Source: an uncultured virus (IMG/VR IMGVR_UViG_3300029305_005063) (lineage: Duplodnaviria; Heunggongvirae; Uroviricota; Caudoviricetes). From it: 64,000 bases of DNA. Position numbers and translations under genes: made by a program. Below the pieces are notes generated by a model. That model was not told the DNA's origin. It ran no database searches and was given only the letters and a program-made list of their open reading frames with translations. Positions 2,286-20,460 of the stretch are shown here, one piece after another (within the stretch, counting starts at the first letter, position 1; each line of letters begins with the position of its first letter). The stretch lies in IMG/VR virus record IMGVR_UViG_3300029305_005063, one strand, 5' to 3'.

Positions 2286-2292
2286 AGATAGA

Positions 2293-4419: not shown

Positions 4420-4430
4420 GGAGGTAACCA

Positions 4431-5168
4431 ATGTGGGAAAGTATTAAATCCTGGTTCGGATCTGGAAGCACTTCAAGAGCTAACGACTATCGTCGTCACA
4501 AGCTTGCATTGCTCAAGCCGAAGAACCTCAACAAGTTCCCTCTGTTCAGAGCTTCTCCTGAAGGATTCACGGCTCCAAGGACTGTAGACCTCAGAGACTA
4601 CTGCCCTCCGACAGAGAACCAGAAAGACACACCTTGGTGTGCTGCATTCTCAACTTCTCACTGGATGTCCAACATCAAGTGGAGGATAACTGATAGGTTG
4701 CCTCTCTACAATGCTGAAGACATCTACAAAAAAGCCAAACAGATTGATGGATTTCCGGATCAGGACGGAACTACTCTAACTGCTACTTTACAGGTAGTCA
4801 GGGATGAGATGAAGATGTTCGATCCTAGCTGTGAGATCCAGACGTTCTACGGTCCGGATGGAGTTGAATCCATCAAGTACGCTATCCACAAATTCGGATG
4901 CTGTTTGCTCGGATTCCTCATCACTCAAGAATGGTACAACGTCACCTTCGATAACTCCGAGATTAAAGGAATCGATTCTCCGATACTTGGTGGGCATGCA
5001 GTACTTGCATGTGGCTACAACAAGTTCGGTGTTATCATCCAGAACTCCTGGGGTGAAGGTTGGGGTGAGTACGGTTACGCCATCGTGTCGTGGGATGCAG
5101 TCAGGAAGTATCTCCAGTATGGAGCTGTCCTCACTAGATCCCTCGATGGTCTTGCTCTTCCTAAATGA
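4431..5168 (+). CDS. papain-like cysteine peptidase (C1A family)
   Basis: VDLR, NQ..xxCAAF (catalytic Cys), GGHAV (His), QNSWGEGWGEYGY (Asn) motifs. Confidence 0.9.
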   Translation: MWESIKSWFGSGSTSRANDYRRHKLALLKPKNLNKFPLFRASPEGFTAPRTVDLRDYCPPTENQKDTPWCAAFSTSHWMSNIKWRITDRLPLYNAEDIYKKAKQIDGFPDQDGTTLTATLQVVRDEMKMFDPSCEIQTFYGPDGVESIKYAIHKFGCCLLGFLITQEWYNVTFDNSEIKGIDSPILGGHAVLACGYNKFGVIIQNSWGEGWGEYGYAIVSWDAVRKYLQYGAVLTRSLDGLALPK

Positions 5169-5219
5169 AATAAGTTACATACTCGAGTACGCCGTCATTA
5201 GGCGTACTCGAGTGTGCAC

Positions 5220-5756
5220 TTAAGATCCAGATCCGCTGAAAAGGTTACATACCCAATCCCAAAGCATCTTAGCGTGATCTCCTGTTACAATCCAGACGAC
5301 TGCACCTGCAAGGATCGTGAATGCCCAGGAGATCTTGCCGTGGAAGGTAGCGTGTTCATCACTCGCCACCTGCAGAGCATCGATCTCCTTACGAGCATCC
5401 TTCCAGGCTTTGTCAGCCTTCTTGATGTACTTGCTAAGTTCGCTAAGATTACGTTTGTTGATGGAGATGCTGTTGCCATGACTCCATAGCTGCTGATCCT
5501 GTTCAGCCAACTTGTTGTTGATCTCCACAAGCATTCCGATGATGCTCTTGATGTTGTCCATCGCAGTGTCAATGAGTACTGCTACCCTGATGATCTGCGT
5601 GTTCTGTTTGTCATCATTTGCATCACTTCTGTTACCAAGCAAGTTAAGCTGGTTCTGGAGATCGGTACATTTGGCTTCAAGGTCGAGCTTGACTTTCTCT
5701 ATCTTGGCAGAAAGACCCTGTGGAGTAAGATCGGCTTCGTCAATCTCGTTGGCCAT
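5220..5756 (-). CDS. coiled-coil protein with C-terminal TM helix (holin-like architecture)
   Basis: Long heptad region plus WAFTILAGAVVWIV segment. Confidence 0.5.
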   Translation of the reverse strand: MANEIDEADLTPQGLSAKIEKVKLDLEAKCTDLQNQLNLLGNRSDANDDKQNTQIIRVAVLIDTAMDNIKSIIGMLVEINNKLAEQDQQLWSHGNSISINKRNLSELSKYIKKADKAWKDARKEIDALQVASDEHATFHGKISWAFTILAGAVVWIVTGDHAKMLWDWVCNLFSGSGS

Positions 5757-5777
5757 CTCGAACTCCCATTTTCATCA

Positions 5778-6650
5778 TCACTTGCACGTATCGTACAAGT
5801 GGTTGGCTGTGAGGATGTAGTTGTGCTCGATAGTCATCTGACGAGTAGCTGCCATACCGTAAGCATCAACGATGAGGGCCACCTGTTTGGCAGTCTCTCC
5901 GAGATTCTTGAGATCCTTCTGAGTGAGGACAGTATCAACGGATTCAGCCTGCTTGGCTATCTCACGAAGAGTACCTTCCATCGACCCGATGATCTCACTT
6001 ATTGCTCTAACATCCTGAAGACGAGACTCGTTCTCAATAAGAGTCTTGCGAACCTCAACCCACTCTTGGTTGGTGAGGAACACATCCTGGTAAGCTTTCT
6101 TGTAGCTGAACTTGCCGTTGAACTGCTCTAGAGCGAAGTTGATGGCAGGAAGAGCTTGCTTGCCGATGCGAGTGAAGATGGTGCAAGTAGATTCGATCTG
6201 CTTGGCAACATTCTTGTCACCTTGCATAAGAGCAAGAAGAGTTTCCCTGAACGAAGTATCGCTGAGCTTCACCGAGTTCATAGCACTGAGCTTGGTGTAC
6301 ACCTGAACGAGAGCGCTGACAGCAGTCTTGTACGTTCCCTTCATGTTCGCAGGAACGTCCACATCAACATCGATGCGCTTCTCATACGGGATGCCGTCGA
6401 TGGTACGCATCTTGATCGTGTTGCTCTGAGTGAACTCGTTGATCTCAGAACGCTTGATGGACTTCGTGCAGTTGATGAGGTTGCTAACACCTGTCTTGAG
6501 AACACCTGCAAGGCTATCGACTATGCTCACGAACATGCGTCCGATGATGTTCGAATTAAGCCCCTCAAGGCTGCCGTATTGGTCTACCCCTTCTGCGAGG
6601 ATCGCATCGATCTTCTCGCAGGTTTGAGTATAGAGTTTAAGCTGTTTCAT
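5778..6650 (-). CDS. putative virion structural protein (phiKZ-like)
   Basis: MKQLKL N-term, SLE|G motif, late TATG motif at 6679-6686. Confidence 0.55.
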   Translation of the reverse strand: MKQLKLYTQTCEKIDAILAEGVDQYGSLEGLNSNIIGRMFVSIVDSLAGVLKTGVSNLINCTKSIKRSEINEFTQSNTIKMRTIDGIPYEKRIDVDVDVPANMKGTYKTAVSALVQVYTKLSAMNSVKLSDTSFRETLLALMQGDKNVAKQIESTCTIFTRIGKQALPAINFALEQFNGKFSYKKAYQDVFLTNQEWVEVRKTLIENESRLQDVRAISEIIGSMEGTLREIAKQAESVDTVLTQKDLKNLGETAKQVALIVDAYGMAATRQMTIEHNYILTANHLYDTCK

Positions 6651-6736
6651 CGTTGAATTTCCTTAATAAAATCGAACTCATAAGATAGACCAGCCCCTGA
6701 CGACACGAGGCCGTCAGGAGCGAGTCTACCAACTGG

Positions 6737-7225
6737 TTATTTGCCGGCGGGAAGTTCAGGAAGTGCAGCAGTAGTCGTCTGCACCTCGAGCAACTTCTTG
6801 CCTTGGATACTGTTCTTCAGACATGTGTAAACAAGCTGCAGAAGAGTCTCACGAATGTTCGTGTCGATCTCGCTGCACTTGATGTACTTGCCTGTTGCTA
6901 TGCAGATCTGACCAGCCTTGAAGATAGCCATGGCCGCAAGCCATGCGGCGTTACCTTTAAGACCAGCTTTAGCTGCAGCAACGATTGCCAGCTTGGCAAG
7001 GTTCTGGTTCTCAGAGTTGTTGATGATGAATACAACAGTCTCTTTAACACCGTAGAACACGATCTGAACAATCGGCTTAATGAAAGTCCAGACGTATTTT
7101 GCGATCTTCTTGTACCAAGGTTCCTTGCGAAGTTCTTCTTGCTGTTCCTCGGCCAATGCAGTGATAGCTTGCTGCTTGGCGACTTCCAGCTGTTCCGGTG
7201 TAAGAGTTGTTTCTTCGTCCATCAC
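6737..7225 (-). CDS. hypothetical membrane-associated protein
   Basis: 162 aa, amphipathic/hydrophobic helices, AAGGAG SD. Confidence 0.6.
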   Translation of the reverse strand: MMDEETTLTPEQLEVAKQQAITALAEEQQEELRKEPWYKKIAKYVWTFIKPIVQIVFYGVKETVVFIINNSENQNLAKLAIVAAAKAGLKGNAAWLAAMAIFKAGQICIATGKYIKCSEIDTNIRETLLQLVYTCLKNSIQGKKLLEVQTTTAALPELPAGK

Positions 7226-7228
7226 TGG

Positions 7229-7615
7229 TTACTCCTTGAATCTTGCTGTGAAATACGGTGACAGGTAGAAGTCTCCATAACCAGGAACGATACCATCGGA
7301 GTAAAACTCCAGAAGAGTACCGTGCTCATAAGTCATGTAAGACTCGACCAGGTGATGCTTCACACTCAGACAACGAATCGTCTGTTCCAGGTTCGCTAGA
7401 AGCGCATCTATTTCGGTACAATGCGCGTTCTTCTTGATGACCAACTGGTTCTCAATGAACGCTCTCAGAGTACCGTCTTCATCACGTTCGACGGGGTTGT
7501 CTTTGAACGCCAGGTCATCGTTGATCAGGTTATCGTCAGGAAAAAGAGCCCGGACCGTATCCGCCAGCTCTATCATGAATGCCCGGACGAACCCTGCTTT
7601 TTCATCGTCTCTCAT
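7229..7615 (-). CDS. hypothetical protein
   Basis: 128 aa ORF, AGGAGG SD. Confidence 0.6.
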   Translation of the reverse strand: MRDDEKAGFVRAFMIELADTVRALFPDDNLINDDLAFKDNPVERDEDGTLRAFIENQLVIKKNAHCTEIDALLANLEQTIRCLSVKHHLVESYMTYEHGTLLEFYSDGIVPGYGDFYLSPYFTARFKE

Positions 7616-7693
7616 AACGAGGGTCCTCCTTCAGAGTACTAATTGTACCCCTACAAAAGATGGTGCTGAAAAAGCAGAGTTGCCCTAGGAAAA

Positions 7694-8284
7694 TCAAGGA
7701 CGATGATTCTTCTTGAACCATATCTTCCTGAACGTATCGTTGACCTTCAGCTGCATGTGAGATAGCTGCGAGAACTGATGACGAAACTTGTCATCGATCA
7801 TCAGAGCGATGCCTTTTTTGCCACGTGCTTCAAGTGACTTCGCAGTCTTCTGAAGAGTCTTCTGCATGGATGCCATCAGGTCATACTGACGGAAGCATTC
7901 GTGGAAATCGTAGAGCTGCGCTGGGAAGAGATCGCAGCGGTGTTCCCAGTGACCAGCTTTCGGATCCTTCTCAGTAGGCTCGCTTCTCCAGAATGCGACC
8001 CCGAGACGGCCATCCTTGACTATCTCCAAGCCTATGCCATCTGCAGGCTTCCCGTCAACACAAAGGTACTGCTTGAGCAGCTCCTTTTCACGCTCGATCT
8101 TCACATCCTTCGCATTGAAGTAAATCGGAACAGGACCCGCTTTAACGACTTCCTTCTTCTGCGGAGCAGGCTCTTCGGCGGGTTTGGTATCCGTAAGAGA
8201 GTTGGGGATGACAACCTTCGGAGGAGTCTTCTTCTCTTCTGCGACAGGTTGCTCTACCGCGGGTTCCGCTGTTGGTACGTGCAT
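7694..8284 (-). CDS. hypothetical protein with Pro/Glu-rich N-term
   Basis: Start moved to MHVPTAEP behind AAGGAG SD. Confidence 0.6.
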   Translation of the reverse strand: MHVPTAEPAVEQPVAEEKKTPPKVVIPNSLTDTKPAEEPAPQKKEVVKAGPVPIYFNAKDVKIEREKELLKQYLCVDGKPADGIGLEIVKDGRLGVAFWRSEPTEKDPKAGHWEHRCDLFPAQLYDFHECFRQYDLMASMQKTLQKTAKSLEARGKKGIALMIDDKFRHQFSQLSHMQLKVNDTFRKIWFKKNHRP

Positions 8285-8404
8285 AACTATTCTCCTTAAT
8301 GGGTTGACTATGTGTAAGATAGCGTGACAAGACAAAAAAGAAAGAACAGCAGAGGACGGTTGCCCGCCCCCTGCTGTGTGCTTTCAGAATGAGATAACCC
8401 AGAA

Positions 8405-9445
8405 TTACTTCTTGGGCTCTTCGTTCGTGTTCTCGACCTTGGTCTGCTTGGAGTCCTCGGTCGTAGCGGCCTTGAGAAGCTTGTCAAGAGCAGCGCCAGC
8501 CTTCATGATGAGCGAGTTCTCAATGCGGCAAGCCTTGAGAGCAGCGTCCATTGCGGCACGCTTCTTGTTGACCTCTTCCTTCTTCGCCGTAGCGGCTTCA
8601 CCCTCGAGCGAACCAGCCTTGCCGGCCTCGTCGATGAGGAGCTTCATCGCCTTGTCGATGCTCGTCGCGGCGTTCTGGATCTTCTTGTCCGTGGCCTGCG
8701 TCTTGTAGAGCGTACGCGCACGGCTGAGGTTCGCAGCCGAAGGAGCGAGCTCGGAGAGCTTGTGCTCGGTGGGCTTGGCGTCCATGAGCTTCTTCGCTTC
8801 CTCGTCGAACTTCGCGAACTCCGCCGGGATCGACTCGGCAGCACCGGTCTTGCGGCTGAACTCGTCGACCTTCGTCGCGATCTGACCCGCGAGCGTCACC
8901 ATCGCCTGGATCTGGCCGAGGTCGAGGGAGACGAGCGTCTTGTCCTTGTTGAAGGAGAGAGACTGCGAGATCTGGTAAGCGTCGAGGCGCTTGACCCAGC
9001 GAGCACGGTTCTGGAAGAGCGTTCCGAACCAGTTCTTGATCTTGACCCAGAGGTTCTTCAGGAAGGCGACGAACTTGTTCCAGTACTCCGCCATCTTGCC
9101 CTCGAGACCAGCGCTGTACGTGGCCGTCAGCTGCTTGACCTGATCTTCACCGAGCGACTCGAGACCAGCGACCGTGAGGCACTCCTGGCCGACGCACGCA
9201 GAGACTTCGCCTTCGCTGTTGAAGCTGGCGATGTACTGCTTCGTGAGACCGCCGGTCTTGATGCCCTTGGCGCACATTTCGAGGTTGGCGAGGACCGTGG
9301 ACACTTCCTCAACGTCCGCGCACGCGCTGTAGAGCGCCTCGCTGGCGTCCGAGAGAGCGTTGATCGACTCGACCAGTGCCTCCTCGCTGCAACCGACGGG
9401 CTGTTTGACAGCCGCCTGCACCGAGCTTGTGGACAATTTAAGCAT
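8405..9445 (-). CDS. phiKZ-like internal head protein
   Basis: MLKLS start; GLE|S and GLE|G motifs followed by YWNKFVAFLKNLWVKIKNWF amphipathic helix typical of this family; highly biased codons; late TATG motif 9490-9497. Confidence 0.75.
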   Translation of the reverse strand: MLKLSTSSVQAAVKQPVGCSEEALVESINALSDASEALYSACADVEEVSTVLANLEMCAKGIKTGGLTKQYIASFNSEGEVSACVGQECLTVAGLESLGEDQVKQLTATYSAGLEGKMAEYWNKFVAFLKNLWVKIKNWFGTLFQNRARWVKRLDAYQISQSLSFNKDKTLVSLDLGQIQAMVTLAGQIATKVDEFSRKTGAAESIPAEFAKFDEEAKKLMDAKPTEHKLSELAPSAANLSRARTLYKTQATDKKIQNAATSIDKAMKLLIDEAGKAGSLEGEAATAKKEEVNKKRAAMDAALKACRIENSLIMKAGAALDKLLKAATTEDSKQTKVENTNEEPKK

Positions 9446-9526
9446 GGTTGTATACCTTACTTTCTGTCTTGAGGTTAACACAAACAATTCATAACATAGT
9501 AAGATTATTAGGTTAATTTACAGGTA

Positions 9527-10315
9527 TTAAACCCATTCATAACCCCAGACAACGTCGTCACCATATCTGTCATCCTCGACGGTTGTCCTGATCTTACCAA
9601 CTTCTTCAAGCTTGGTAGTCTTACTTCCCTGGAGGACAGTAAATGTTTCTCCAGCTTTTGGTTTCCAGTATCTCAGATAAGCCAGGATGGATGATGTAGA
9701 TGGAGAGCGTATTCCGGTATCGCCCTTCTTCAGAGCAAATCGAATATCTCCCTCTTCACCGAACGTTGCGGCAATCATGCTCTTATCGGGAGATCCAGAG
9801 TCAGTCCTTATCAACCCGTAGGAGTTCTTGACGTCAATCTTCTCTTTGATATAAGATGACTCAGTGATTGGCTTCATACGGTTAGCTGTAGCGTCCATTA
9901 AGTAAATCTCATTGTCGATGTTGATGAGATTGAATACGTGACCTCTACCTGACTTCCACGCACAGGCAATGATAGCACGAGAACCATTGCCCCAACCGCG
10001 CATCGTTTTGGTGATACTAGCGACAGCGTCTTCGCCGATCTTGGTAAATTTAGCGTTCTTAAACAAACACCAGTTTTGTATCGGGTAGGCGCTTCCTTTA
10101 GGTACGTCGAATACTCTATCCCACGGAGAGTTGGTAATCGTAACCTTCTTGTCTACTCCACGGAACTTAAGTTCAAGTGCTGCAGCAAACTTCTGACAGT
10201 TGTTGCTTACTTTGAATTTGCTAACTTCTGCAAGAAGCTTCTTGGCATGTGCCAGTTTAGGACTGTCTTCATCCTTCTTAGCCTCGAGAGCTGGAATCAT
10301 AAGCTTAATACCCAT
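9527..10315 (-). CDS. papain-fold toxin (Tox-PL, glutamine deamidase-like) domain protein with head-protein-like propeptide
   Basis: NNCQKFAAALELKFRG...GHVFNL...YLMDA gives Cys/His/Asp triad spacing; start MGIKLMIPALE|A behind AAGGAGG. Confidence 0.7.
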   Translation of the reverse strand: MGIKLMIPALEAKKDEDSPKLAHAKKLLAEVSKFKVSNNCQKFAAALELKFRGVDKKVTITNSPWDRVFDVPKGSAYPIQNWCLFKNAKFTKIGEDAVASITKTMRGWGNGSRAIIACAWKSGRGHVFNLINIDNEIYLMDATANRMKPITESSYIKEKIDVKNSYGLIRTDSGSPDKSMIAATFGEEGDIRFALKKGDTGIRSPSTSSILAYLRYWKPKAGETFTVLQGSKTTKLEEVGKIRTTVEDDRYGDDVVWGYEWV

Positions 10316-10394
10316 AATCGAATCCTCCTTATGAAATAGCACTAGTTTACACAAAAAGAAGACACCCCAAGGGGCGGTGTCTTCCGAGCCCACC

Positions 10395-10538
10395 TCAACG
10401 ATAGAGGTGAACTCTGTCCTCGATGACTGTGCCGACTTCGACACCATCAACGATGAGGACCGCCGAGCGATCATCGCCGACTACCTTGGCATCCATGCCG
10501 GCAGCAGTGAGGCGATCGAGCATTGCTTCGACTCCCAT
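10395..10538 (-). CDS. small hypothetical protein (47 aa)
   Basis: MGVEAMLDRLTAAG...; coupled to upstream gene, followed by terminator; not in track. Confidence 0.5.
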   Translation of the reverse strand: MGVEAMLDRLTAAGMDAKVVGDDRSAVLIVDGVEVGTVIEDRVHLYR

Positions 10539-10540
10539 TG

Positions 10541-11230
10541 TTAGTTTCCTTTCTTTGTGGGGTGGGTGAGTGCGAAACGCATCGTGTGCGCCCCGCTTGG
10601 AACACGGTTATCCGTGCGCGGCATCGTCACCTTTTCCAGGTAACTAGCCACACGGAACGCCGTGAAGATCTCGAAGCTGCTTGAACCTTTCAGCACCTCG
10701 TTCAACTTCTTAGCGTATTTACTCCAAGTAGGTGAGCGTTGTGCTGTCCTTACAGCGGAGAGTATCGACTTCGGAGACGGGAATGTCTCCGAAGCGAAGT
10801 ACTTCATCTCCGTTACGAGGAAGTTCACAGCATCAACAACGTGAACGTGAGTGATCACGTCAGCGTGTTTCGTAAGCTTTCCGTATAACAACCCACGAGA
10901 GATGATGGTACCGTGAAGGATACCATACGCCTCACGTAGAGCCGCTTCTTTGACGATACGAGCATTCTCCTGTTGACCAGCGATGTATTTGTCGCAGATC
11001 TCCAGAAGGGTCGTTTTCTCCTCAAAGTCTGGCCAGGCTTCGATCTCCCTGCGGAGAGCCTCGATGTCCTGCTGAGTATCGCAAGGGTTGCACTTGCGCT
11101 CCATCAGCAAAGTTCCGAGGTCGGGCAGCGCCTTGCCTAAGCGCACCCTACCTAGAGGGACCTTCCAGATGGATTTGTCAAATCCCTGGATCTTCGCCTC
11201 GCAGTCTTTGTAGTTGTAGCCTAAGATCAT
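10541..11230 (-). CDS. hypothetical early protein
   Basis: 229 aa; AAGGAG SD; ATATATTAC motif upstream. Confidence 0.65.
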   Translation of the reverse strand: MILGYNYKDCEAKIQGFDKSIWKVPLGRVRLGKALPDLGTLLMERKCNPCDTQQDIEALRREIEAWPDFEEKTTLLEICDKYIAGQQENARIVKEAALREAYGILHGTIISRGLLYGKLTKHADVITHVHVVDAVNFLVTEMKYFASETFPSPKSILSAVRTAQRSPTWSKYAKKLNEVLKGSSSFEIFTAFRVASYLEKVTMPRTDNRVPSGAHTMRFALTHPTKKGN

Positions 11231-11347
11231 TTGTATCTCCTTTTGGTTATGACTACAACGGTAATATATTTTCCATTCTGACAGAGAGACAAAAAGAATA
11301 TCCAGGTAGGGTCGAGCATCGAGCCCGACCCTACCGTGGTATCACAT

Positions 11348-11608
11348 TCACTTAACAGGTGCATCGCAGATTTTGCGTCTGACCATGAAGTCATACACAT
11401 CTCCGATCGTGTGCATCTTCTCGCAGTCTTCCTCTTCGATATTAATTCCAAAAGCTTCCTCTAGCGAAATGATGATCTCGACAACATCGAGTTCATCAGC
11501 CCCAAGATCTTCAACGAGGTCGGATGTAGATTTGATATTTTCTAGTCCGACACACACTGTGTCTTCAACTTGTGCGTTGACGATGGATTGCATCTCTTCG
11601 TATGTCAT
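11348..11608 (-). CDS. acyl carrier protein-like, attachment Ser replaced by Glu
   Basis: DLVEDLGADELDVVEIIISLEEAFGINI...TIGDV matches ACP except DSLD->DELD (GAA codon at 11492-11494). Confidence 0.85.
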   Translation of the reverse strand: MTYEEMQSIVNAQVEDTVCVGLENIKSTSDLVEDLGADELDVVEIIISLEEAFGINIEEEDCEKMHTIGDVYDFMVRRKICDAPVK

Positions 11609-11650
11609 GGATGTTGTCCCTTATTAAGTGTAACCTTCCGTGAACTATAG

Positions 11651-11731
11651 CTGCGACGAGCGGACTCGAACCGCCGGCGAGACTGTCCCGACTAGTGGGA
11701 CACGGTGCTACCTACAACACCCCCTATCGCA
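11651..11731 (-). ncRNA. tRNA-like RNA with aberrant anticodon loop (ACUAGUC)
   Basis: Cloverleaf: D arm GGUG/CACC, 6-bp anticodon stem UGUCCC/GGGACA, T arm GGCGG-UUCGAGU-CCGCU, acceptor with bulged A; no U33/R37, no CCA. Confidence 0.7.
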
Positions 11732-11789
11732 ACGTCAGACAATGGAATTCGGTCCATTGTCATTATCCTAGCCATTCTTTTTCCGACTT

Positions 11790-12340
11790 GTATACCGATG
11801 GCCAGTTATCTGACACGTTCAGAAACTAGATTTTCCACCAAGTACACTAGGCTCGTTCGGGCCAATGACGAAGCAGCCCACTTTCCTATACGATTAAGCA
11901 TTGCCTTAATTTTTAATGTTAGACCCAGGAGATGTCTGCACCTAGAGAATCAACTCTAGGTTAAGAGCGTTCACACGTATTCCTCATCTCCTACACACAA
12001 CCACAGCATAACCCAGATCCACAAGACCGTATCGATCCGTTCTCGTTTCGTTATACCACAATTGTGCAAGGGTAGCATAACCCTGCCTAGGTTCCGTCTA
12101 TTCTGCTAGCGTTACCCACAAGCCGTCCGGTTTCCGATCCGCCTGTGAACTAACCCTGTTCAGCATTACGTCTCTCAACGCACTTTGCATCCCAGGAAAT
12201 CAAGGCCCATGAGAGACTTTCACTCTCAACACCCGTAAATGGCAACAGGGCGTTATTTACCACAGACGTATTTGTATCCAATCGGTTGCCAATCGACAAC
12301 GCCTGTGCCGGAATAACTGTTACCACGTTCGTAGCAGTAC
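11790..12340 (-). ncRNA. large structured ncRNA (~550 nt), OLE-like candidate
   Basis: No credible ORF; ends pair (CAGUUAUUCCGGCAC 12319-12305 with GUGUCAGAUAACUG 11816-11803, extended by GUGGU/GCCAU and GUACUG/CGGUAU); many internal hairpins. Confidence 0.65.
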
Positions 12341-12405
12341 GTGCATGCTAGCTATCATGCGCGGTTACCGTGTTTTAACTAATGAGTCTACACTTGTTGA
12401 ACGCT

Positions 12406-13146
12406 CTACTTTTTCTTCCTCGACCTGCTTTTCGCAGCAGCGACAGCAGGTTGCTTGACGAAGATCTTGCAGATGCAAGGCTCGCCAATCTTCTTGTTCT
12501 CAAGGAAATCCTTGCAGTGACACTTGGTGTCAGCGGACTTCACCTGACAAGGGCAGTAGCCGCCATTCTTATCAATGGCATCGAGGATTTTGTTGATCTG
12601 AGCGACAGTCAACTTCTCGTTCAGACGAACACACGCAGGAACCTCAGGAGTGGGTTCGGGAGCAGGAGTCGGAGCAGGCTCTGGTTTGACGGGAGCCTTC
12701 GTGAAGACCTTCTTGAGGTAGCTGACCATGTTCTTCGCGCCAGCATCACCAGTCTTCTTGTTGCGGAGCGTGTTGCCGTCAACAGCCTGGTCGACGACGA
12801 TCTTGCCCTTGGCGTCGTAGAGAGTGATCCTGACGCCAGGATAATACCGCAAACCGGTTCCCTTGTAGATCCAGTCGTGAAGAGTCTGCCCTTTGTCCTT
12901 GTCTCCAGAATACTGGAACACAAAGTACGCATCCGACTTCTTCATCCAGTCAGTGAACGCCTTCTTCATCATGCATGTCTCTGCAGTGGTGCAGTAACCG
13001 CACTTGTCGCCGTTGGACCACATGGTCACGATGAACTTCCCGTTCTTCTTAGCAAGAGCGAGAGCCTTCTTGTAGTCTGAGTTCCAGACGCCTACAGTCG
13101 GCGTGCCGCTGGAACGTTGCTTGATGAACGTTGCCGTGGTTCCCAT
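12406..13146 (-). CDS. thioredoxin-fold protein fused to ferredoxin-thioredoxin-reductase catalytic-like domain
   Basis: N-term CGYC thioredoxin motif; PEP linker; C-term NGGYCPC...CHC...CIC pattern. Confidence 0.65.
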   Translation of the reverse strand: MGTTATFIKQRSSGTPTVGVWNSDYKKALALAKKNGKFIVTMWSNGDKCGYCTTAETCMMKKAFTDWMKKSDAYFVFQYSGDKDKGQTLHDWIYKGTGLRYYPGVRITLYDAKGKIVVDQAVDGNTLRNKKTGDAGAKNMVSYLKKVFTKAPVKPEPAPTPAPEPTPEVPACVRLNEKLTVAQINKILDAIDKNGGYCPCQVKSADTKCHCKDFLENKKIGEPCICKIFVKQPAVAAAKSRSRKKK

Positions 13147-13203
13147 GGCTGTTCTCCTATTTGTTGTGTTTATGTTACAAATGCAGGCTTAGTTTTTACG
13201 GGA

Positions 13204-13383
13204 GGGCGCCACACCTCCTAACTGGGACAACTCCCTCCAGATCCGCTCCTCATTGGGAACTTCACTGGAGAGATATTGATTTCATTATGGCGCCCAGCGC
13301 CCACGAGGGGTCGGCGCGTATGGGTGAATACTGATACCCTGCTGGTCACGGGTGGCCAACTCCTAGCAACAACGTATCAGCAC
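13204..13383 (-). ncRNA. structured intergenic RNA (two hairpin domains)
   Basis: GUGCUGAUAC/GUAUCAGUAU (13383-13328) and GGGCGCCAUA/UGUGGCGCCC enclosing CUCUCCAG/CUGGAGGG (13295-13204). Confidence 0.45.
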
Positions 13384-13392
13384 GCACACAAA

Positions 13393-13827
13393 TCATTTCT
13401 CTTCGGCGTAGCTGTCGACACCGAGATGGACGTGGAATGTTTTCTCTTCACCACCCCACTTGAAAACGTACTCAACATCCATGTCGCTTCCATTTGTGTA
13501 ATTCATACGAGAATCACCGCGCATTTTGTAGAGGAAGCTTTCGGTGCTGTTAATAGCAGCGTTCAGAAATTCATCATAGAGAGATTTGCTCTTGAACTTC
13601 AGAACATAGTCAGCACACCTGATTCCGAACGATCTGATATCAATGCCAAGCCAGTACGTCTGTCCAGGACCCTCATCGAATCCGTGGACGTTCGCCCACA
13701 TGAGGGCGCTGTTCGGCCAAGTGACAGTTTCATCGTGGATGTGATTGATCCAGTGTTCACTGGTGTTTTTCAGTTTCTTGGAGAAGATTTTCTTGATCTT
13801 CTGCCAGATAGTCTTGAGGATGAGCAT
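13393..13827 (-). CDS. hypothetical protein
   Basis: Start moved to MLILKTIWQ behind AAGGAG SD. Confidence 0.6.
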   Translation of the reverse strand: MLILKTIWQKIKKIFSKKLKNTSEHWINHIHDETVTWPNSALMWANVHGFDEGPGQTYWLGIDIRSFGIRCADYVLKFKSKSLYDEFLNAAINSTESFLYKMRGDSRMNYTNGSDMDVEYVFKWGGEEKTFHVHLGVDSYAEEK

Positions 13828-13899
13828 GAATTGTTCTCCTTGTTGTAAGATAAGCAAAAAAGAAAGTGTGTCAAGGTTAGTGTCCCGACTATTACGCCG

Positions 13900-13974
13900 A
13901 TACCCGATGGGACTCGAACCCACTACCTCTGAGAACGTTGCTCAGCGATTCTTACCAAATGAATCTACTGGGCA
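13900..13974 (-). ncRNA. tRNA-like RNA with aberrant anticodon loop (CAACGUU; nominal ACG)
   Basis: D arm GAUUC/GAAUC with GG, anticodon stem CUGAG/CUCAG, T arm GUGGG-UUCGAGU-CCCAU, acceptor with bulged A; no U33/R37, no CCA. Confidence 0.7.
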
Positions 13975-13996
13975 GGCACGCCTTGACACACGAGAT

Positions 13997-14392
13997 TGGT
14001 GGAGGTGGCGAGAGTCAAACTCGCGTCCGCTATGCAGCACCTGCACATTCGTTCACATGCTTAGTGATCAATTAGTCGGCTCATATACCAGGACGGCTAA
14101 TCACGACCTAACCTGATACATGTCGAGAGCATCGAGACCGCCTCTTGTACTAATCTAAGCTCATCTCTCAATACAGCTTAGATAGACCAGTGTAGATTAC
14201 CCTGAACGTGCTACTCTGATTCCTCGCACATCCAAGTAAGGTCTCGGGTTATACCCGGGCTGACTTAGGCAGCCGCCTTGTACTCAACGTGATTGTTGGC
14301 ACTTATGGTTTTGCATCCGTCGTTAAGGAGTAGGATACATCTCCTGCATGCATGTACATTTACCGTCACAACGTCGAAATCGGTTCACCCCC
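13997..14392 (-). ncRNA. ssrA: tmRNA; tag peptide (A)ANNHVEYKAAA*
   Basis: 5' GGGGGUG...UUCGAC, 3' CACCUCCACCA with G3-U pair; AUAAGU-GCC resume context; tag ends AAA-stop. Confidence 0.95.
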
Positions 14393-14415
14393 GTTGTTGA
14401 AGAGCTAGCTACTTT

Positions 14416-14553
14416 AACAGGTCTGCGCCACTAGACCCAACCGCACCTCACGAGGAGGGTTTGATATCGCCTGCGGCATCCACTTGTTGGGATGGGGCTA
14501 CCTCGATATAAGTTCGAGTGTTCAAGCCTGGAAGTTACCAGACATCACCTGCT
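14416..14553 (-). ncRNA. 6S-like rod-shaped RNA
   Basis: Nested stems AGCAGGU/ACCUGUU, AGGCUUGA/UUGGGUCU, AUAUCG/CGAUAU, CAUCC/GGAUG around a central bubble containing ACCCUCCUCGUGAGGUGCGG. Confidence 0.5.
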
Positions 14554-14569
14554 GATCAGGCAAGAGGAA

Positions 14570-14697
14570 GTAAGAGCTGAGCTTAGAGATGTGAAGGTCG
14601 GATCCTCTCCTGGTGTTACCCAGGCCGATACCCCGATGATCTAGTAGTTAATTATAATCGCACCTCACCTTGCGCTCAGAGCACAGTTGGCTCTTGC
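14570..14697 (-). ncRNA. second rod-shaped structured RNA
   Basis: GCAAGAGC/GCUCUUAC, CUGAGC/GCUCAG, GAGGUG/CAUCUC, CCUGG/CCAGG nested stems with an AU-rich bulge. Confidence 0.4.
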
Positions 14698-14919
14698 TCC
14701 AGGGTAGACGAGTTCATTGACTTAGAACGTAGTTAGACTGGTACCGAGAGAAAGCACGAAGCAAACTCTAAGTCCTCCAGAGATAGGTCGTTCAAGAATA
14801 GCCGGTTCGTCACACTCCGCGCTATCGAAATTGCGTTTGCGAACAACATCCGGCGCAAAACCGGCAAGAGATAACATCGTGACGCGTTAATGAAGCTACC
14901 ATAGTTGTCGATCGCGCGC

Positions 14920-15015
14920 ATTACCGACAAGGGAATCGAACCCTCCATTCAAGAACTCATACTCCCTAGATCCACATCAAGTACGGAGTCGAACCGCATC
15001 GGGAGTATTGTCACG
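14920..15015 (-). ncRNA. RNA with two T-arm/T-loop hairpins
   Basis: UGCGG-UUCGACU-CCGUA and GAGGG-UUCGAUU-CCCUU; first enclosed by AUACUCCC/GGGAGUAU. Confidence 0.55.
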
Positions 15016-15030
15016 ATGTTAAAGGTAAGC

Positions 15031-15108
15031 TGGTGGCGGGGACGGGAATCGAACCCGTATAGCTCGCGTTATGAGCGCGCGTCAGTTCCAGTCCTGACCC
15101 ACCCCGCA
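15031..15108 (-). tRNA. tRNA-Met (CAT), initiator-like acceptor
   Basis: Cloverleaf with CU-CAU-AA loop, encoded CCA, U1:C72 mismatch. Confidence 0.9.
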
Positions 15109-15144
15109 ATCTTGTCTATAAATAGAGGTGTAGCACTTATAACG

Positions 15145-15822
15145 TTACACTTCCACAGGGCACTGCTCGTGCTCTCTTCGACAGGTATTGTTGATGATCA
15201 CACCCCTGCTATTTGGATGGCAGGTGTACTTGCAAGTGAGGTCAATACCGATCGAAGCGTCGACATTCCAGTGAGACTCGACAGACACGCAATTCGTGTC
15301 GTACTCAGGAATAGCGGCCGTGAGATGGTCGATCAGCTTAGTGCGGATGCTTAGCGAAAGCTCCTCGAAACGCCTCTTGGATAGTTTCTCCCATTGGTAT
15401 TTATCAACGAACTCTCGAAAAGCTTCTCTGACGATCTTCTTGCAATGCTCAGAACGAAGGATGGGAACAAGCTTTACGCGAATGTTCTCTTCCTTCATGA
15501 TCTCTTTAGCATTGGGTCCACAAGCGCACTCGACCTGAGCTCTTTCGAGGTTGATCGGCACGCCACAGGAATTGCCTTTGTTGTTGACGAACGCTGGCAT
15601 GTAGGGCATGATTCGCCTGCGCTCTATCTTAAACTTCTTAAAGGAAATATCCCTACAGTTAGGAGTTCCGCAGAAGGGGCAACCGATGGTGAACGGCACA
15701 GGTTTGTGGTCTGGACCGCCTGTCTCAAGGTTCTCCTCGAGATACATCTTGAATCCTCGACCACACTCACTGCATCCGTAGATCATGTAGCCGTTAGTAT
15801 AACGACGTTTACCCTTGCCCAT
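15145..15822 (-). CDS. zinc-ribbon protein
   Basis: CSECG...CPFCG; start MGKGKRR behind AAGGAG. Confidence 0.6.
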   Translation of the reverse strand: MGKGKRRYTNGYMIYGCSECGRGFKMYLEENLETGGPDHKPVPFTIGCPFCGTPNCRDISFKKFKIERRRIMPYMPAFVNNKGNSCGVPINLERAQVECACGPNAKEIMKEENIRVKLVPILRSEHCKKIVREAFREFVDKYQWEKLSKRRFEELSLSIRTKLIDHLTAAIPEYDTNCVSVESHWNVDASIGIDLTCKYTCHPNSRGVIINNTCRREHEQCPVEV

Positions 15823-16750
15823 TGTCAGTTTCTCCTTGTATAGGCGCGAGACTGTACTTGTCCCTACGCCAAATGTTGAAATTCGGAACGGTGAACTCAT
15901 CCATGACGATGCCGCGATAGATGAACTGACCGAGTTCCTTGTGATCGACATGAGTGAACTCTACGTGACCTATGCGAGCATCGGTTATCATTTCGTTCAC
16001 TCTTCCGATGTACAGCTCCCACCTACCAGCTCGGAGGCAGCATGAGTTCTTCGGGTCGTCAACATCTGTGAACGGAACATCCTGGAGTAGTTCGATGCAT
16101 CCATTGCAGCCGTTGATCCTACCGTCTTCAGTGACGTCGATCGGGAACCCGTTCCACCACTCGAAGAAGTCGTCACGTCTCGCAACGCACTCCGAGATGT
16201 CGAATTTCGCATAAGTACCGGGTTTGTCCGGCACTTCGATGTTGAGACTCACATACGCCTCAGGGATGTCGATCTCGCGATTCAGTATAGCCTTGGCAAG
16301 CCTCTTGAAGATGTTGCCAGCGCCAGAGACACTGCCGCGATACGAAACACTCATAGACTTGAGAGGATACGGTTGAGTGTGAATGATCACAGGGTTGCAC
16401 TGGTCATCGAACTCAAACTCCACCAAGAATGTGTTGGTTTCGTTCTTATCAGCATCGAACGGATTGTCGCCGTTTTCAAGCTTGAACGGCTTGTTAACGG
16501 TGACACCTACTCGAGGCAGATGCGATCTGGCCTGCGCTACGAAGATGTTTCGGATATGAACGAAGAGCTCGTGCTCCTTGCAAGCTGCTTCATGATACTC
16601 GACGAGTATCTTGCGTTCAGCGACGTTGTCGTGTGAATCATCATCACCAATTTCGATCTCTAGCTTAGCAATGATCGCATCGAGTTTCTTCTCGATGCGA
16701 TCCAGCTGAGATTCCGGTTGTCCAATGACGTACGGAATTTTAAGCGCCAT
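15809..16750 (-). CDS. hypothetical protein
   Basis: 313 aa, overlapping operon arrangement, AAGGAG SD. Confidence 0.65.
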   Translation of the reverse strand: MALKIPYVIGQPESQLDRIEKKLDAIIAKLEIEIGDDDSHDNVAERKILVEYHEAACKEHELFVHIRNIFVAQARSHLPRVGVTVNKPFKLENGDNPFDADKNETNTFLVEFEFDDQCNPVIIHTQPYPLKSMSVSYRGSVSGAGNIFKRLAKAILNREIDIPEAYVSLNIEVPDKPGTYAKFDISECVARRDDFFEWWNGFPIDVTEDGRINGCNGCIELLQDVPFTDVDDPKNSCCLRAGRWELYIGRVNEMITDARIGHVEFTHVDHKELGQFIYRGIVMDEFTVPNFNIWRRDKYSLAPIQGETDNGQG

Positions 16751-17228
16751 GGTTCTCCTTTTTGTTCTTGGTTTCTATGAAGTTTTTGAAGTTGGAAAGT
16801 TCAGAACATCCAGACTGCAGTGCGTACGCTAGATGACGAACACCCACGTCGAGATCTGAAGAATACAGAGTGGCAACTCCACAGTCGTCACTGCAGATAT
16901 AGAACACTCCAGGGTCTACACCGATGAACAGTGAATATTCTCCTGGAGGCACACCGAGAACTGCTCTGTGCACACGAAGATCGTGGATGATGTAGCCGGT
17001 TCTGCACTTGTCATCACGAGTGTACTCGGACTTAGTTGTGAGGAACTGTTTGAGATCCTCGTCGAACCACTGGTATCCACCAAAGTCTAATGCAGCAGCA
17101 CGTTCTTCGTCTGGCTTGTCCACAACAGGTGTGAGTCTTTCACACAACTGTCGGAGCAACCCGTTCATTGTTTCGAGTTGTTTCTCGATGTTGATAAGAA
17201 CATGATGTTCTTCAGTTGTTAAACTCAT
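16740..17228 (-). CDS. hypothetical protein
   Basis: 162 aa, translationally coupled. Confidence 0.6.
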   Translation of the reverse strand: MSLTTEEHHVLINIEKQLETMNGLLRQLCERLTPVVDKPDEERAAALDFGGYQWFDEDLKQFLTTKSEYTRDDKCRTGYIIHDLRVHRAVLGVPPGEYSLFIGVDPGVFYICSDDCGVATLYSSDLDVGVRHLAYALQSGCSELSNFKNFIETKNKKENHGA

Positions 17229-17665
17229 GATTTTCGTTCCTTTTGATTGAAGGTAGGATCATCTATCCCCCTCAAACAGACTTTGTACTCAAGCTTGATC
17301 TTGTGCCAGACACCAGCCTGGTACGGACCACGCTTACCGCCGACACTGACGAAGCCTATCTGATCGTCGAGAACAGGTGCTTTAACAGTGTAGCCTAGAA
17401 CTGAGACAGGCTGTACGTCGATGAGGTAGTTGGAAATCTCCTTCATCCACATGACTGCGATCTCAGTGTTGAATACGACATAGCCGTCCATCTGCATCTT
17501 GGGGAACACACGGAGCTTGAGCTCCGCTTTCTCCTCCAGAGTGCTAGTGGGACAGTTACCCTTAACAGTGATGATGTATTCACTGATGGGATAGTCACAC
17601 AGCAAGTTGTGGAAGAAGTTCCTCAGTGGATGGACCAGCTTAATCTTGTTCGGCGTCCGATTCAT
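17225..17665 (-). CDS. hypothetical protein
   Basis: Start moved to MNRTPNK behind GAGGAGG. Confidence 0.55.
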   Translation of the reverse strand: MNRTPNKIKLVHPLRNFFHNLLCDYPISEYIITVKGNCPTSTLEEKAELKLRVFPKMQMDGYVVFNTEIAVMWMKEISNYLIDVQPVSVLGYTVKAPVLDDQIGFVSVGGKRGPYQAGVWHKIKLEYKVCLRGIDDPTFNQKERKS

Positions 17666-18728
17666 CGAAGTCCTCCTCGTGCTCTTCTGTTCCTCTTGCG
17701 AAGCGATAGTAGAAGCTTCCCCTATCGACACAGCTGTCGCCATCTCCAAGAGTTTTCACTTCAGATGGGTTATTCCTGGAGAATACGAAGTTCATCGCAT
17801 TGGCTATCGCGTTGGCTTTGAAGATCTCATGACGAGCATCAGAGATCGGATCCATCTTGAGAACTTCGGCAAACTTGTGCGCTCCTACTGCGATAAGATG
17901 CATGGCGTATTCAATACGCTGCGCTCTTGCGATCGTGTGTTTACAACGAGCAAGACCGACGTCGCCTTCGTCTCCAGCGAAACGCTCTTTACCTAAATAG
18001 GTGAGCACATTATCGATTTCGTCTTGCATTCCCAAGAACGAGGTGTTCCTCGTTATCTTGCTCATGTAGAGACTCTCTCTGACTGTTTCGATGTCGTAGA
18101 GATTCTTGTCTAAGATACCACAGAATCTACCGCCTCCCAAAGTAGTGTAGGTGCAGTAGAATTTGTATCCTAGATCGAACGCCAGTATTTCGGTGCCTTC
18201 GCGACCCGGCGTCTTGTCGTAAGCTATCGTCACCTCAGCGTCCATGTGGTAAACGACAGGATCAATGGGAGTTGTCACACAACTTGGAAGAGGGACAGTG
18301 TCGGTATTATCACCGAACATCTTGAACCTGAGGATCTTGATGTCACCTTTAGCCAATTTCTTTTCGTCGAAGTCAGGCTTGAACGGGCTGACAATAGGCA
18401 TCCTGCGGATGTTCTGATTGTGCCAGCGAAGACCCCAGTCCTTATGGACACGAGGATAGATCATGTATTTACCATTCTGGTAAGCAGCAATCCTCTCCAG
18501 GTCGTCAATAAGTTCAGCTGCTCTTCCAGCTTGCATGTACTGGGATTCACTCTTGATGGCTGACTTGACAACGAGATCAGTCAACTCTTCGTCTATGTAT
18601 TTCTGAGAAGGAAGGCGCATCTTCAGCACTTCCATTTCAAGTTCTCGCGTATGCCGAGTATCCTCTGGATTCTTGAGTTCCTCGAATGTCTCGATACGCA
18701 GCGGTCGATGCTTGGTTATCGTTTTCAT
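17640..18728 (-). CDS. hypothetical early protein
   Basis: Start MKTITK behind AGGA; ATATATCAC motif upstream (18793-18801). Confidence 0.65.
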   Translation of the reverse strand: MKTITKHRPLRIETFEELKNPEDTRHTRELEMEVLKMRLPSQKYIDEELTDLVVKSAIKSESQYMQAGRAAELIDDLERIAAYQNGKYMIYPRVHKDWGLRWHNQNIRRMPIVSPFKPDFDEKKLAKGDIKILRFKMFGDNTDTVPLPSCVTTPIDPVVYHMDAEVTIAYDKTPGREGTEILAFDLGYKFYCTYTTLGGGRFCGILDKNLYDIETVRESLYMSKITRNTSFLGMQDEIDNVLTYLGKERFAGDEGDVGLARCKHTIARAQRIEYAMHLIAVGAHKFAEVLKMDPISDARHEIFKANAIANAMNFVFSRNNPSEVKTLGDGDSCVDRGSFYYRFARGTEEHEEDFDESDAEQD

Positions 18729-18872
18729 TTTTTGTTCCTGTTTGTTGTTCGTTGATGCACGGCTTAGACAACATTGTCGTTCGTGCATAAGAGTGATATA
18801 TGCACTAAGCAATTACGAGAAAAAAGAACAGAACGCTCTGCCTGGTACGAGACCAGGCAGAGCTGTTCCAAT

Positions 18873-19226
18873 TCAAAACACAATCGGCACTGTCAGCAAT
18901 GGACCTGTTGGAGTTCCATCTGAGTTGAACTTCGGTTGATGAGTTGTAGCTGGAGGAGTAGTTCCGTTGAGAACAACCCACTGCCAATCTAACCACTCAT
19001 ACTGAACCTCTATGAGAGCCGTGGTCTTGTGGTCTGTTACACCAGCAGCTATCTCAAGTTCTTCCTTCCGATAGTCGGCAGGACTGAATGGTTTGTTATT
19101 GTGCCACCTGCGTATCCAGTCAGCAGAAGCTCTTTCCCACTTCGTTTCACAGAACGATCCTGCACGGCGGATGCCGCACACGACCATCAGGCACATGAAC
19201 ACACCTAGGAATATCCATAGCATCAT
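18873..19226 (-). CDS. membrane-anchored hypothetical protein
   Basis: N-terminal hydrophobic helix; AAGGAG SD. Confidence 0.6.
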   Translation of the reverse strand: MMLWIFLGVFMCLMVVCGIRRAGSFCETKWERASADWIRRWHNNKPFSPADYRKEELEIAAGVTDHKTTALIEVQYEWLDWQWVVLNGTTPPATTHQPKFNSDGTPTGPLLTVPIVF

Positions 19227-19253
19227 CGCTATTCTCCTTGTTGAGGGTTGACC

Positions 19254-19943
19254 TTACAGTTTAGATATCTTCTTGTTAGTGTAGAACAGGAAGTAGTCTA
19301 TATGACTGTAAAGTTTTGTAGCAATTTTGCTGTAGGTGTAAAACAGTGAAAATTGTCCTATGATTCCCGACTGGTTTTGCTCTTTAGAGGCCTTCCAGAA
19401 GGTATCCCAATTGGACTTCCTTAGGGTGGCTAAATTGCCAGCTGCTTGAGCTCTGAACTCCTTAGCGAGAGTTAGAACACGAGCGGTTGAAAATCCAAGC
19501 TCTCCGAAGGTCTTGTCCTCAAGTGCATAGCCTTTCTTAGCTGCTTCAGATCGAGCATCACAGAACGCGGAGAACACAGGCATGTGTCTGTCAAGGTTGG
19601 CTCTTATCCCATCCAGTTTATCCCTGAGCTTCTTGTAGATAGCACGAGAGTCATCTGAATCGACTTGAGCTTTCTTCATGTCCTGGAAGTTGTCCACCAT
19701 GAACCTTGTGACGGTTGCCACGTAGGAAGAAGCTGCAAGCATGTGATCAGCTTTCAGACAGAGGAAGTCAATCTCAGTCTTGAGGAACTTGTTACGTCCC
19801 TCTTCCTTGAGGTTGATAACTCCTTTAATAAGACCGTCGATGATGTGAGCGGACTTACTGTCTGAAGTGAATGTGTGTTGTAGCTTAGTCCAGAATCCCT
19901 CCTGAGCCGGAGAGATCTCAGAAGAGAGTTGAAGCTTAACCAT
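19254..19943 (-). CDS. putative virion internal-head family protein
   Basis: Start MVKLQLSSEISPAQE|GFWTKL. Confidence 0.55.
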   Translation of the reverse strand: MVKLQLSSEISPAQEGFWTKLQHTFTSDSKSAHIIDGLIKGVINLKEEGRNKFLKTEIDFLCLKADHMLAASSYVATVTRFMVDNFQDMKKAQVDSDDSRAIYKKLRDKLDGIRANLDRHMPVFSAFCDARSEAAKKGYALEDKTFGELGFSTARVLTLAKEFRAQAAGNLATLRKSNWDTFWKASKEQNQSGIIGQFSLFYTYSKIATKLYSHIDYFLFYTNKKISKL

Positions 19944-19983
19944 TTTCAAAACCTCAGCTTTATTAAAATCCTCTTTCCATCGC

Positions 19984-20460
19984 TCATTTCTCCTTGTCTT
20001 TCTCCGTCTCCTCGAACTTTGAGGCTTCTTTGATTCTATCTTCGAATGGTTTGTAGCCATCCTCAGCCAGAGGTTTTCCTGTGTTGCGTTTGATCTGGAC
20101 CGCACTGTCATCGCAGAAGAACAACATAGCCCAGTCCTTCTCACTGGTAATAGGCAGTTTAACACCGATGTGTTTCTCACACCACTTCTGGATCACTTCC
20201 GCCTGATCAGCATAAGAGACTCCATCGTGCATAGCAAGAGACACCTTAGAAAGTCTAGCAGTGAATACCTTGACGGTTATTCCCTTAGCAAGCCACTCCT
20301 TGACTTTCTTGACCATCTCTGGAACAGGGTCGTTGATGTGGTTCCATCCCTTCCACTCTCCCCACTGGGCAAGAGTGCCATCAAGGTCAACGCCTATCCA
20401 CGGTGGTGGTTCAACATTTGGTTTAGCTTCCAAATGTTCCATTGAAAGTTTAACTCGCAT
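19984..20460 (-). CDS. HAD-family phosphatase (PNK-phosphatase-like)
   Basis: WIGVDLDGTLA motif I, FTAR motif II, K, DD motif IV. Confidence 0.8.
   Translation of the reverse strand: MRVKLSMEHLEAKPNVEPPPWIGVDLDGTLAQWGEWKGWNHINDPVPEMVKKVKEWLAKGITVKVFTARLSKVSLAMHDGVSYADQAEVIQKWCEKHIGVKLPITSEKDWAMLFFCDDSAVQIKRNTGKPLAEDGYKPFEDRIKEASKFEETEKDKEK

Follow-up and report, generated by a model that had tools for sequence, protein, structure and literature searches.

The DNA considered here, hereafter the window, is a stretch of 64,000 nucleotides (nt) from an uncultured virus of the Caudoviricetes (IMG/VR record IMGVR_UViG_3300029305_005063), judged to be a phiKZ-like gut jumbo phage because it encodes an internal-head-protein domain as well as two genes for split subunits of RNA polymerase. 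Between positions 11,348 and 15,108, it carries an island of RNA and protein features (Table 1) that occupies the slot of a transfer RNA (tRNA) array. This slot is filled by four T-arm-bearing tRNA look-alikes that probably do not decode, a true transfer-messenger RNA (tmRNA) and a large folded RNA, and no ordinary tRNA was found in the 64-kb window. Proteins at least 90% identical to those of the island are encoded on contigs of 266-268 kb, and the DNA runs containing the island come from animal faeces and gut, several of them from sheep. An earlier interpretation made from the letters alone, the sequence-only reading, had described the island as a co-oriented set of RNA and protein mimics made as one transcript. 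All the elements do lie on the minus strand, which carries little information, as the long flanking genes (5220-11230 and 15809-20180) lie on the same strand.

Table 1. Features of the island, in the order of the minus strand (z, folding score relative to shuffled sequences)
Feature	Position	Strand	Basis and remarks
Divergent tRNA-Met-like element	15031..15108	-	ARAGORN Met(cat); acceptor, T-arm and CCA intact; D-arm and anticodon stem remodelled
Double-T-arm RNA, 150 nt, perfect 12-bp terminal helix	14872..15021	-	Fold, inverted repeat
Conserved non-coding stretch (first "rod")	14562..14870	-	RNA-library contig pieces, 3 studies, 10-26 other letters
Accessory non-coding stretch (second "rod")	14393..14561	-	z -0.06; ends in leader UUCAACAA before tmRNA
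tmRNA, canonical, CCA end	13997..14392	-	RF00023, 109.8 bits against a cut-off of 47
tRNA-like element 1 in 11-bp closing helix, U-tract after	13866..13991	-	ARAGORN; z -3.4; no CCA
Sigma-70-like promoter, 10 of 12	13847..13874	-	Consensus scan; overlaps element 1 closing helix, precedes orf144
orf144, conserved 144-residue protein	13393..13827	-	Homologues 40-73% identical in phage contigs; Shine-Dalgarno-like leader
Structured intergenic RNA, long hairpins	13165..13392	-	z -3.6; free RNA or Trx-FTR leader
Trx-FTR: thioredoxin-fold domain (CGYC) and FTR-catalytic-chain-like domain (CPC, CHC, CIC)	12406..13146	-	Foldseek, Atlas clusters
Large orphan RNA with multiple junctions, about 660 nt	11738..12394	-	z -3.7 (11735-12400); begins at leader UUCAACAA
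tRNA-like element 2, 3' end of large RNA, no CCA	11650..11733	-	ARAGORN, fold
ACP-fold protein, Glu39 at phosphopantetheine Ser site (DELD)	11348..11608	-	PF00550/TIGR00517 profiles
Terminator-like strong hairpin, U-rich tail, at the end of the island	11291..11342	-	z -6.9; inverted repeat I2; not called by consensus scan
Perfect T-arms	15058, 14998, 14945, 13923, 11675	-	64-kb scan

A scan of both strands of the window for perfect T-arms returned five, all inside the island, compared with a mean of 0.3 and a maximum of 2 in 50 shuffles. Besides the tmRNA, ARAGORN called a Met, an Arg and a Leu tRNA, and at the Rfam gathering level the tmRNA was the sole match. As a scan of 5.9 kb had missed the divergent GOLLD of locus L006, a positive control that an 821-nt scan detected, the window was searched again in shorter stretches (821 and 1961 nt), and tRNA-like elements 1 and 2, the large RNA and the stretch 13165-13392 still matched no Rfam family. 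The idea that the elements fall outside ordinary Rfam families, already put forward in the sequence-only reading, is thereby borne out. Identities as RNase P, group I or II intron, hammerhead or hepatitis delta virus-like RNA were tried and rejected, with no Rfam match and no motif found by eye.

The first of the look-alikes had been taken for a canonical tRNA-Met. The hallmarks of a canonical initiator or elongator tRNA-Met are a 1:72 mismatch, a CAU loop, a CCA end and GGG/CCC pairs in the anticodon stem; here the mismatch, the loop and the CCA are present and the anticodon stem is GCG/CGC. With 28 bits, below the RF00005 cut-off of 29, and a drawn fold with a 5-bp D-stem as well as a G.A mismatch and GCG instead of GGG in the anticodon stem, the element cannot be called canonical. 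A loose contig end at 15094 in a relative keeps the D-like 5-bp hairpin and has no CAU loop (one contig, by eye), and the contig of one relative skips 15055-15101.

The neighbouring double-T-loop RNA is recovered as proposed, with its two T-arms within a perfect closing helix. The pairing probability is 0.96 for this helix and 0.27 and 0.45 for the T-arms, and the z of the whole element is only -1.3. Perfect closing helices of 11 and 12 bp, such as those of element 1 and of this RNA, represent two of six such repeats in the window, the shuffle mean being 2.0. The 3' half shows the order T-arm, acceptor-like hairpin and D-loop-like part of the Y RNA YrlA (RF02553), which is also found in phages. 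It differs from YrlA by the second T-arm, and neither a match to the model nor the Ro60-binding motif GNCGAAN0-1G was found. According to PMC4201824, YrlA is cut by RNase P and bears this motif near its 5' end. No Ro60 gene was found among the 75 window proteins compared with PHROGs or the nine near-island proteins compared with Pfam. At least 118 viral matches were obtained with a pattern of two T-loops spaced by 49-59 nt, and 80 of them were fetched; both stems reach at least 4 bp outside ARAGORN tRNAs in 41 of these 80 loci (39 distinct), for a chance level of 2%, and non-tRNA T-arm RNAs therefore recur in phages, although none of the 80 has the sequence or topology found in the window. Many double-T-arm RNAs were seen among these loci (L094-L173), and those of L106, L139, L149 and L160 form a family closed by an acceptor-like helix.

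The two cloverleaf-like RNAs noticed in the sequence-only reading are also retained as tRNA-like. ARAGORN labels elements 1 and 2 Arg and Leu, RF00005 gives neither of them a match, and their anticodon-position loops, CAACGUU and ACUAGUC, do not show the U33 and purine 37 of decoding tRNAs; these loops hold the palindromes AACGUU and ACUAGU, respectively. Element 2 is made of an 8-bp acceptor and of 6-bp D and anticodon stems, and its cloverleaf lies within 0.6 kcal/mol of the minimum free energy, with helix pairing probabilities of 0.95-0.97 and a T-arm at 0.52; compared with the tRNA-Sec model, it reaches only 16 bits. In an unrelated phage, locus L088 has at about 1185-1262 (minus strand) a cloverleaf missed by ARAGORN with an ACUAGU loop, this loop having been part of the search pattern.

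Stable RNAs within a phage tRNA cluster are likewise found in T4, whose RNA C and RNA D (rnaC, rnaD; NC_000866.4 70908-71171) lie in the tRNA region with a role given as unknown in PMC3014915 and PMC9697503. A T-arm enclosed by a terminal helix forms the end of T4 RNA C, a point of resemblance with the island, whereas no sequence likeness extends past the T-arm (z 2.4 at best), and the island differs by its four look-alikes and the absence of an ordinary tRNA.

The structured RNA that had been estimated at about 550 nt proves to be structured indeed, its size being rather about 660 nt, and it runs directly into the element 2 cloverleaf at its 3' end, for about 750 nt together. A long-range helix closes 12394-11915, and the centroid of 11640-12402 contains 27 helices of at least 4 bp. 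One RNA-library contig covers 11643-12400 with 22 other letters. Since the 821-nt scan gave no Rfam match for this RNA while the GOLLD control of the same size was detected (E 2e-18), identity with GOLLD is excluded; ROOL, OLE and raiA gave no match at E up to 10 in the large RNA or the island, the ROOL and OLE searches being without a working positive control and the raiA search without a control. A likeness seen by eye with a 700-nt RNA of L088 was rejected, as 40 of 100 shuffles equalled the top score, and the comparison with a 460-nt RNA of L001 (p 0.003, 0.96 and 0.92) holds under one of three scoring schemes. The L088 stretch itself (about 1720-2428, minus strand) is ORF-poor over some 700 nt and is not ROOL, GOLLD or OLE.

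In size (600-800 nt), multi-junction architecture, phage origin and closeness to tRNA islands, the large RNA resembles GOLLD (RF02032) and ROOL (RF03087), both located near tRNA islands according to 10.1101/2024.12.08.627333 and PMC5737381. GOLLD sometimes has linked tRNAs, and it has palindromic kissing loops. The large RNA gave no match to either model and differs from both by the cloverleaf attached to its 3' end, which is probably non-decoding. Palindromes of 6 nt were counted post hoc in five of 28 predicted loops of at least 6 nt, against a mean of 1.0 and a maximum of 2 in 40 shuffles and against four of 83 in coding tiles (Fisher p 0.043). Across the window, 6-nt palindromes are depleted (793 versus 918 in shuffles), as restriction avoidance would predict.

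These loops raise the question of whether self-assembly is the main function of the locus, palindromic kissing pairs assembling the large RNA, with its cloverleaf, into dimers or cages. Beyond the enrichment over shuffles and coding tiles, this view draws on a loop that changes from one palindrome, AACGUU, to another, ACAUGU, in the relative X8, on the recurrence of the ACUAGU loop in the pattern-selected L088 cloverleaf, and on symmetric bridges of OLE and GOLLD that are marked by palindrome switching according to 10.1101/2024.12.08.627333. Nonetheless, the count was made post hoc on predicted folds, the switch is seen in one variant contig, two of the five palindromic loops have 13-14 nt and are sited in a poorly folding region, and the same loop method gives none of eight for the GOLLD of L006, so that we regard self-assembly as the main function as unlikely. 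A bolder proposal, in which the RNA of about 750 nt would open, beside GOLLD and ROOL, a third class of phage RNAs that self-assemble, and in which the tRNA genes of this lineage would have been converted into non-decoding elbows, their anticodon loops having become palindromic kissing loops that link RNAs into assemblies able to trap host tRNA-binding or defence proteins, is a speculative one that we hold to be distinctly unlikely.

Contigs of four runs (X8, X15, X16 and X17), of which any one run may mix strains, were compared over 9500-17000. As had been anticipated for relatives, the elements are retained in the same order; one DNA contig proceeds through ACP, element 2, large RNA, Trx-FTR, hairpins and orf144, and has some 200 additional letters in the interval 12234-12450. 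In three of the four runs, the non-coding pieces are more conserved than the coding ones, the differing letters amounting to 2.9 versus 11.8% in X15, 3.6 versus 9.3% in X17 and 3.5 versus 5.6% in X8 (p <=0.005); the difference in X16, 5.5 versus 6.4%, is not significant. This comparison concerns the listed part of the differences, 31 further rows lying outside it, and classes 27 of the 32 listed rows, five mixed or tmRNA-only rows being omitted and three of the kept rows being partly mixed. Among the differences listed, four changes in X8 affect the element 1 cloverleaf, namely the T-loop purine and three loop bases, and spare the stems; the "anticodon" of element 1 is therefore not kept, its palindrome being replaced by another one in this single contig. 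T-arms are thus kept among close relatives and anticodon-position loops are variable.

More distantly, 44 Trx-FTR and 7 orf144 loci were gathered (51, partly on the same contigs). Ordinary tRNA arrays stand at this neighbourhood in L001, L002, L003 and L006, with 10, 8, 24 and 23 tRNAs, respectively, the L001 locus also carrying Trx-FTR, orf144 and an ACP with its Ser; many Trx-FTR loci are without any tRNA. A decaying tRNA array, composed of tRNA-gene relics and neutral spacers, would account for such ordinary tRNAs at the locus of relatives, for tRNA scores just under threshold, for one dispensable stretch and for the unstructured rods. It would hardly leave non-coding DNA that differs less than coding DNA in three of four runs, intact T-arms, perfect 11- and 12-bp closing helices and a 660-nt RNA without tRNA ancestry, which makes decay a very improbable explanation.

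The tmRNA is canonical, as had been stated, its Rfam score, tag frame (ANNHVEYKAAA*) and CCA end being all in place. It is a full member of the bacterial family (RF00023), phage-borne, to which sequences of several alleles or host tmRNAs could be aligned. The 8-nt leader UUCAACAA precedes both the tmRNA and the large RNA, as well as an uncharacterised RNA in L001, an observation made post hoc, and has six copies on the minus strand of the 64 kb. Upstream of the tmRNA, the second rod is missing from one relative's DNA contig, in which 14562 is joined to a different tmRNA 5' end. Two arms of 26 nt, at 14562-14587 (3' end of the upstream stretch) and 14154-14179 (a tmRNA hairpin), are 77% complementary, which may be due to chance.

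These rods had been seen as RNAs and as potential decoys of host RNA polymerase. In the manner of 6S RNA, positions 14688-14805 can be drawn as a bubble between two short helices, the phage has its own polymerase genes, and RNA contigs of two studies end at 14804, a weak hint. Yet, no 6S match appears at E up to 10, the z is +0.35 (+0.35 to +1.3 over the stretches of the first rod), and the helices, of 8-9 bp, are shorter than those of 6S RNA; 6S-like decoys are accordingly extremely improbable, and neither the rods as folded RNAs nor their polymerase role is supported.

Regarding the proteins, Trx-FTR (246 residues) joins a thioredoxin fold, identified by Foldseek, to a C-terminal domain resembling the ferredoxin-thioredoxin reductase (FTR) catalytic chain. 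The latter lies near viral Atlas FeThRed_B clusters (score 0.91-0.92, the family being assigned to 20-69% of their members), with low pLDDT and no direct Pfam match in this half. An alignment of 31 sequences, picked among 120 listed of 198 homologues, shows no variation at the CxxC or at any of the six C-terminal cysteines. While the domain fusion is real, the protein looks like an enzyme with kept cysteines and not like a mimic; from its sequence, it is probably a working redox protein. The intergenic stretch upstream of its gene agrees with the hairpin RNA that had been pointed out, and the conserved gene that follows element 1, orf144, had been left out of the earlier inventory; it matched no Pfam, PHROG or NCBIfam family.

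The acyl carrier protein (ACP)-like protein had been predicted to be non-modifiable, and Glu39 indeed replaces the Ser of the DSL motif. Compared with AcpP (PF00550, TIGR00517), it shares the fold and the helix II face and differs by this Glu, with a TIGR00517 score of 61 for a cut-off of 70. Glu39 is found in nine of ten ACP homologues, the tenth diverging throughout its N-terminal part, and Ser is kept in the four cultured-phage ACPs checked and in the L001 ACP. Glu-for-Ser ACP domains were present in 15 of 15 bacterial loci retrieved by that motif, and phage L026 has one beside Trx-FTR and a dUTPase, without the RNAs of the window. From its sequence features, the protein is a non-loadable ACP that is not specific to the island. 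Some of the bacterial Glu-ACP domains (L065-L079) stand alone or in tandem (L067), and others are fused to domains of the TPR, Sel1 or DUF4190 type. ACP and polymerase queries gave no close relative in viral or genome collections, and a literature search in a collection lacking most subscription papers listed no paper on a Ser-less phage ACP or such an RNA cluster.

It is in this context that the tRNA-like RNAs could be considered as decoys for host proteins that sense or cut tRNAs (anticodon nucleases, RelA, EF-Tu), which together with the Ser-less ACP would blunt the stringent response or defence; this is the idea of the sequence-only reading without its single transcript. Elbows that are kept while decoding is lost, the recurrence of double-T-arm RNAs in phages (41/80 against 2%) and selection on Glu39 would fit such a role. 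On the other hand, a decoy of anticodon nucleases should retain its loop, and the loops vary between relatives; three of the four look-alikes are without CCA, no target was identified, and the Ser-less ACP is present without these RNAs in L026 and in bacterial loci. We therefore consider the decoy explanation unlikely.

Concerning transcription, the closing helix of element 1, which ends at 13866, is followed by a U-tract, and the strongest sigma-70-like site in the region (13874-13847) overlaps there; this terminator-like and promoter-like pair would split the island before orf144, and a strong hairpin stands at the end of the island, after the ACP gene. Two transcription units are thereby favoured over the single transcript initially imagined, which is not proof. 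RNA-library contigs from three studies contain the large RNA and 14523-14804. Gaps in RNA-run coverage (tRNA-Met-like element, double-T RNA, element 1 and most flanking genes) were not used as evidence, because the island itself had served to find the runs and such libraries tend to lose small RNAs; bins with depth numbered 16, 14 and 20 of 30 in the RNA runs and 30 of 30 in the DNA run.

Taken together, these data lead us to propose, with a probability of about one half, that the locus is a tRNA-array slot filled with stable orphan non-coding RNAs instead of decoding tRNAs, which would be cut out at their tRNA-like ends and include a GOLLD/ROOL-like large RNA. Several points weigh against this proposal. 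Element 1 does not preferentially fold as a cloverleaf (acceptor pairing probability 0.0, T-arm 0.22), and 14393-14870 gives no thermodynamic signal (nine stretches with z from -0.8 to +1.3, the tmRNA control being at -4.7). The RNA evidence consists of contigs in RNA libraries, which may include DNA and attest presence, not transcription; one of them continues 300 nt past the large RNA into other, gene-end-like sequence, which fits read-through or DNA. The internal promoter is a weak sign, since sigma-70-like sites are not enriched (4 versus 4.4 in shuffles), and phiKZ-like phages transcribe with their own polymerases, two subunit genes of which lie in the window. Lastly, no homologue of the orphan RNAs was found beyond close relatives in INPHARED phages, plasmids, five IMG/VR records and, by blastn or nhmmer, L001-L085, nor by a pattern search for element 1. 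Combined with the tRNA arrays at the relatives' loci, this indicates that the tRNA-array slot has received a filling peculiar to this lineage; a dedicated RNA-plus-protein module, as once suggested, is not sustained, the 44 Trx-FTR and 7 orf144 loci being without an RNA homologue and the Ser-less ACP being widespread.

Under the proposal of a filled tRNA array, two or more transcription units would give rise to the island RNAs. The host enzymes of tRNA processing (RNase P, RNase Z/E and 3' exonucleases) might read the acceptor/T-arm elbows and cut the RNAs out, tRNA-like ends being plausible processing sites. Such processing would free the tmRNA as well as the small RNAs and the RNA of about 660-750 nt, and protect them. 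The tmRNA would then rescue ribosomes for the phage, and the large RNA, by analogy with GOLLD and ROOL, could act as an abundant structural RNA, copies of which may pair through their palindromic loops. This accessory locus would carry Trx-FTR, orf144 and the Ser-less ACP as passengers, and the last of these may act by binding the partners of host ACP.

Other observations were made in the window and at related loci. Very stable folds lie within coding sequence at 10320-10439 and 10680-10859 of the window (minus strand; z -6.6 and -8.7, 15 shuffles), and a 315-residue gene at 9527-10474 (minus strand) with a papain-fold (Gln_amidase) Pfam match adjoins the phiKZ internal head protein gene. On the plus strand of L001, three uncatalogued structured RNAs (1780-1985, 2432-2715 and 5076-5534) lie within the tRNA array, one with a tRNA-like end and a long anticodon arm, and one with a perfect 12-bp closing helix whose core folds 15 kcal/mol below shuffles; duplicated tRNA 3' ends follow the HNH-like genes of this locus. 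A tRNA-Ser with the rare anticodon ACU is found in L001 (3259-3345) and L002 (7801-7890), both on the plus strand, and L002 also has a tRNA-Leu(UAA) split by an apparent group I intron (3324-3635, plus strand; by eye), which the Rfam scan did not report. Beside its array of 23 tRNAs, L006 carries on the plus strand the divergent GOLLD (4160-5035, 71 bits, below cut-off), a YrlA-like piece (6948-7016) and a class B RNase P RNA (9345-9619, model positions 11-317, 58.8 bits), the missing 3' motif of which seemingly lies 5' of the match by eye, which would make this RNA circularly permuted.

It has long been asked what GOLLD, ROOL and T4 RNA C and D do, and this locus adds to them an uncatalogued RNA of about 700 nt found in gut RNA libraries. 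This large RNA can be made in vitro, where its palindromic loops are predicted to pair and compensating swaps to restore pairing. At the same time, look-alikes that probably do not decode have here taken the place of a tRNA array, and double-T-arm RNAs, to judge from the side search, seem to be common in phage genomes without having been catalogued.

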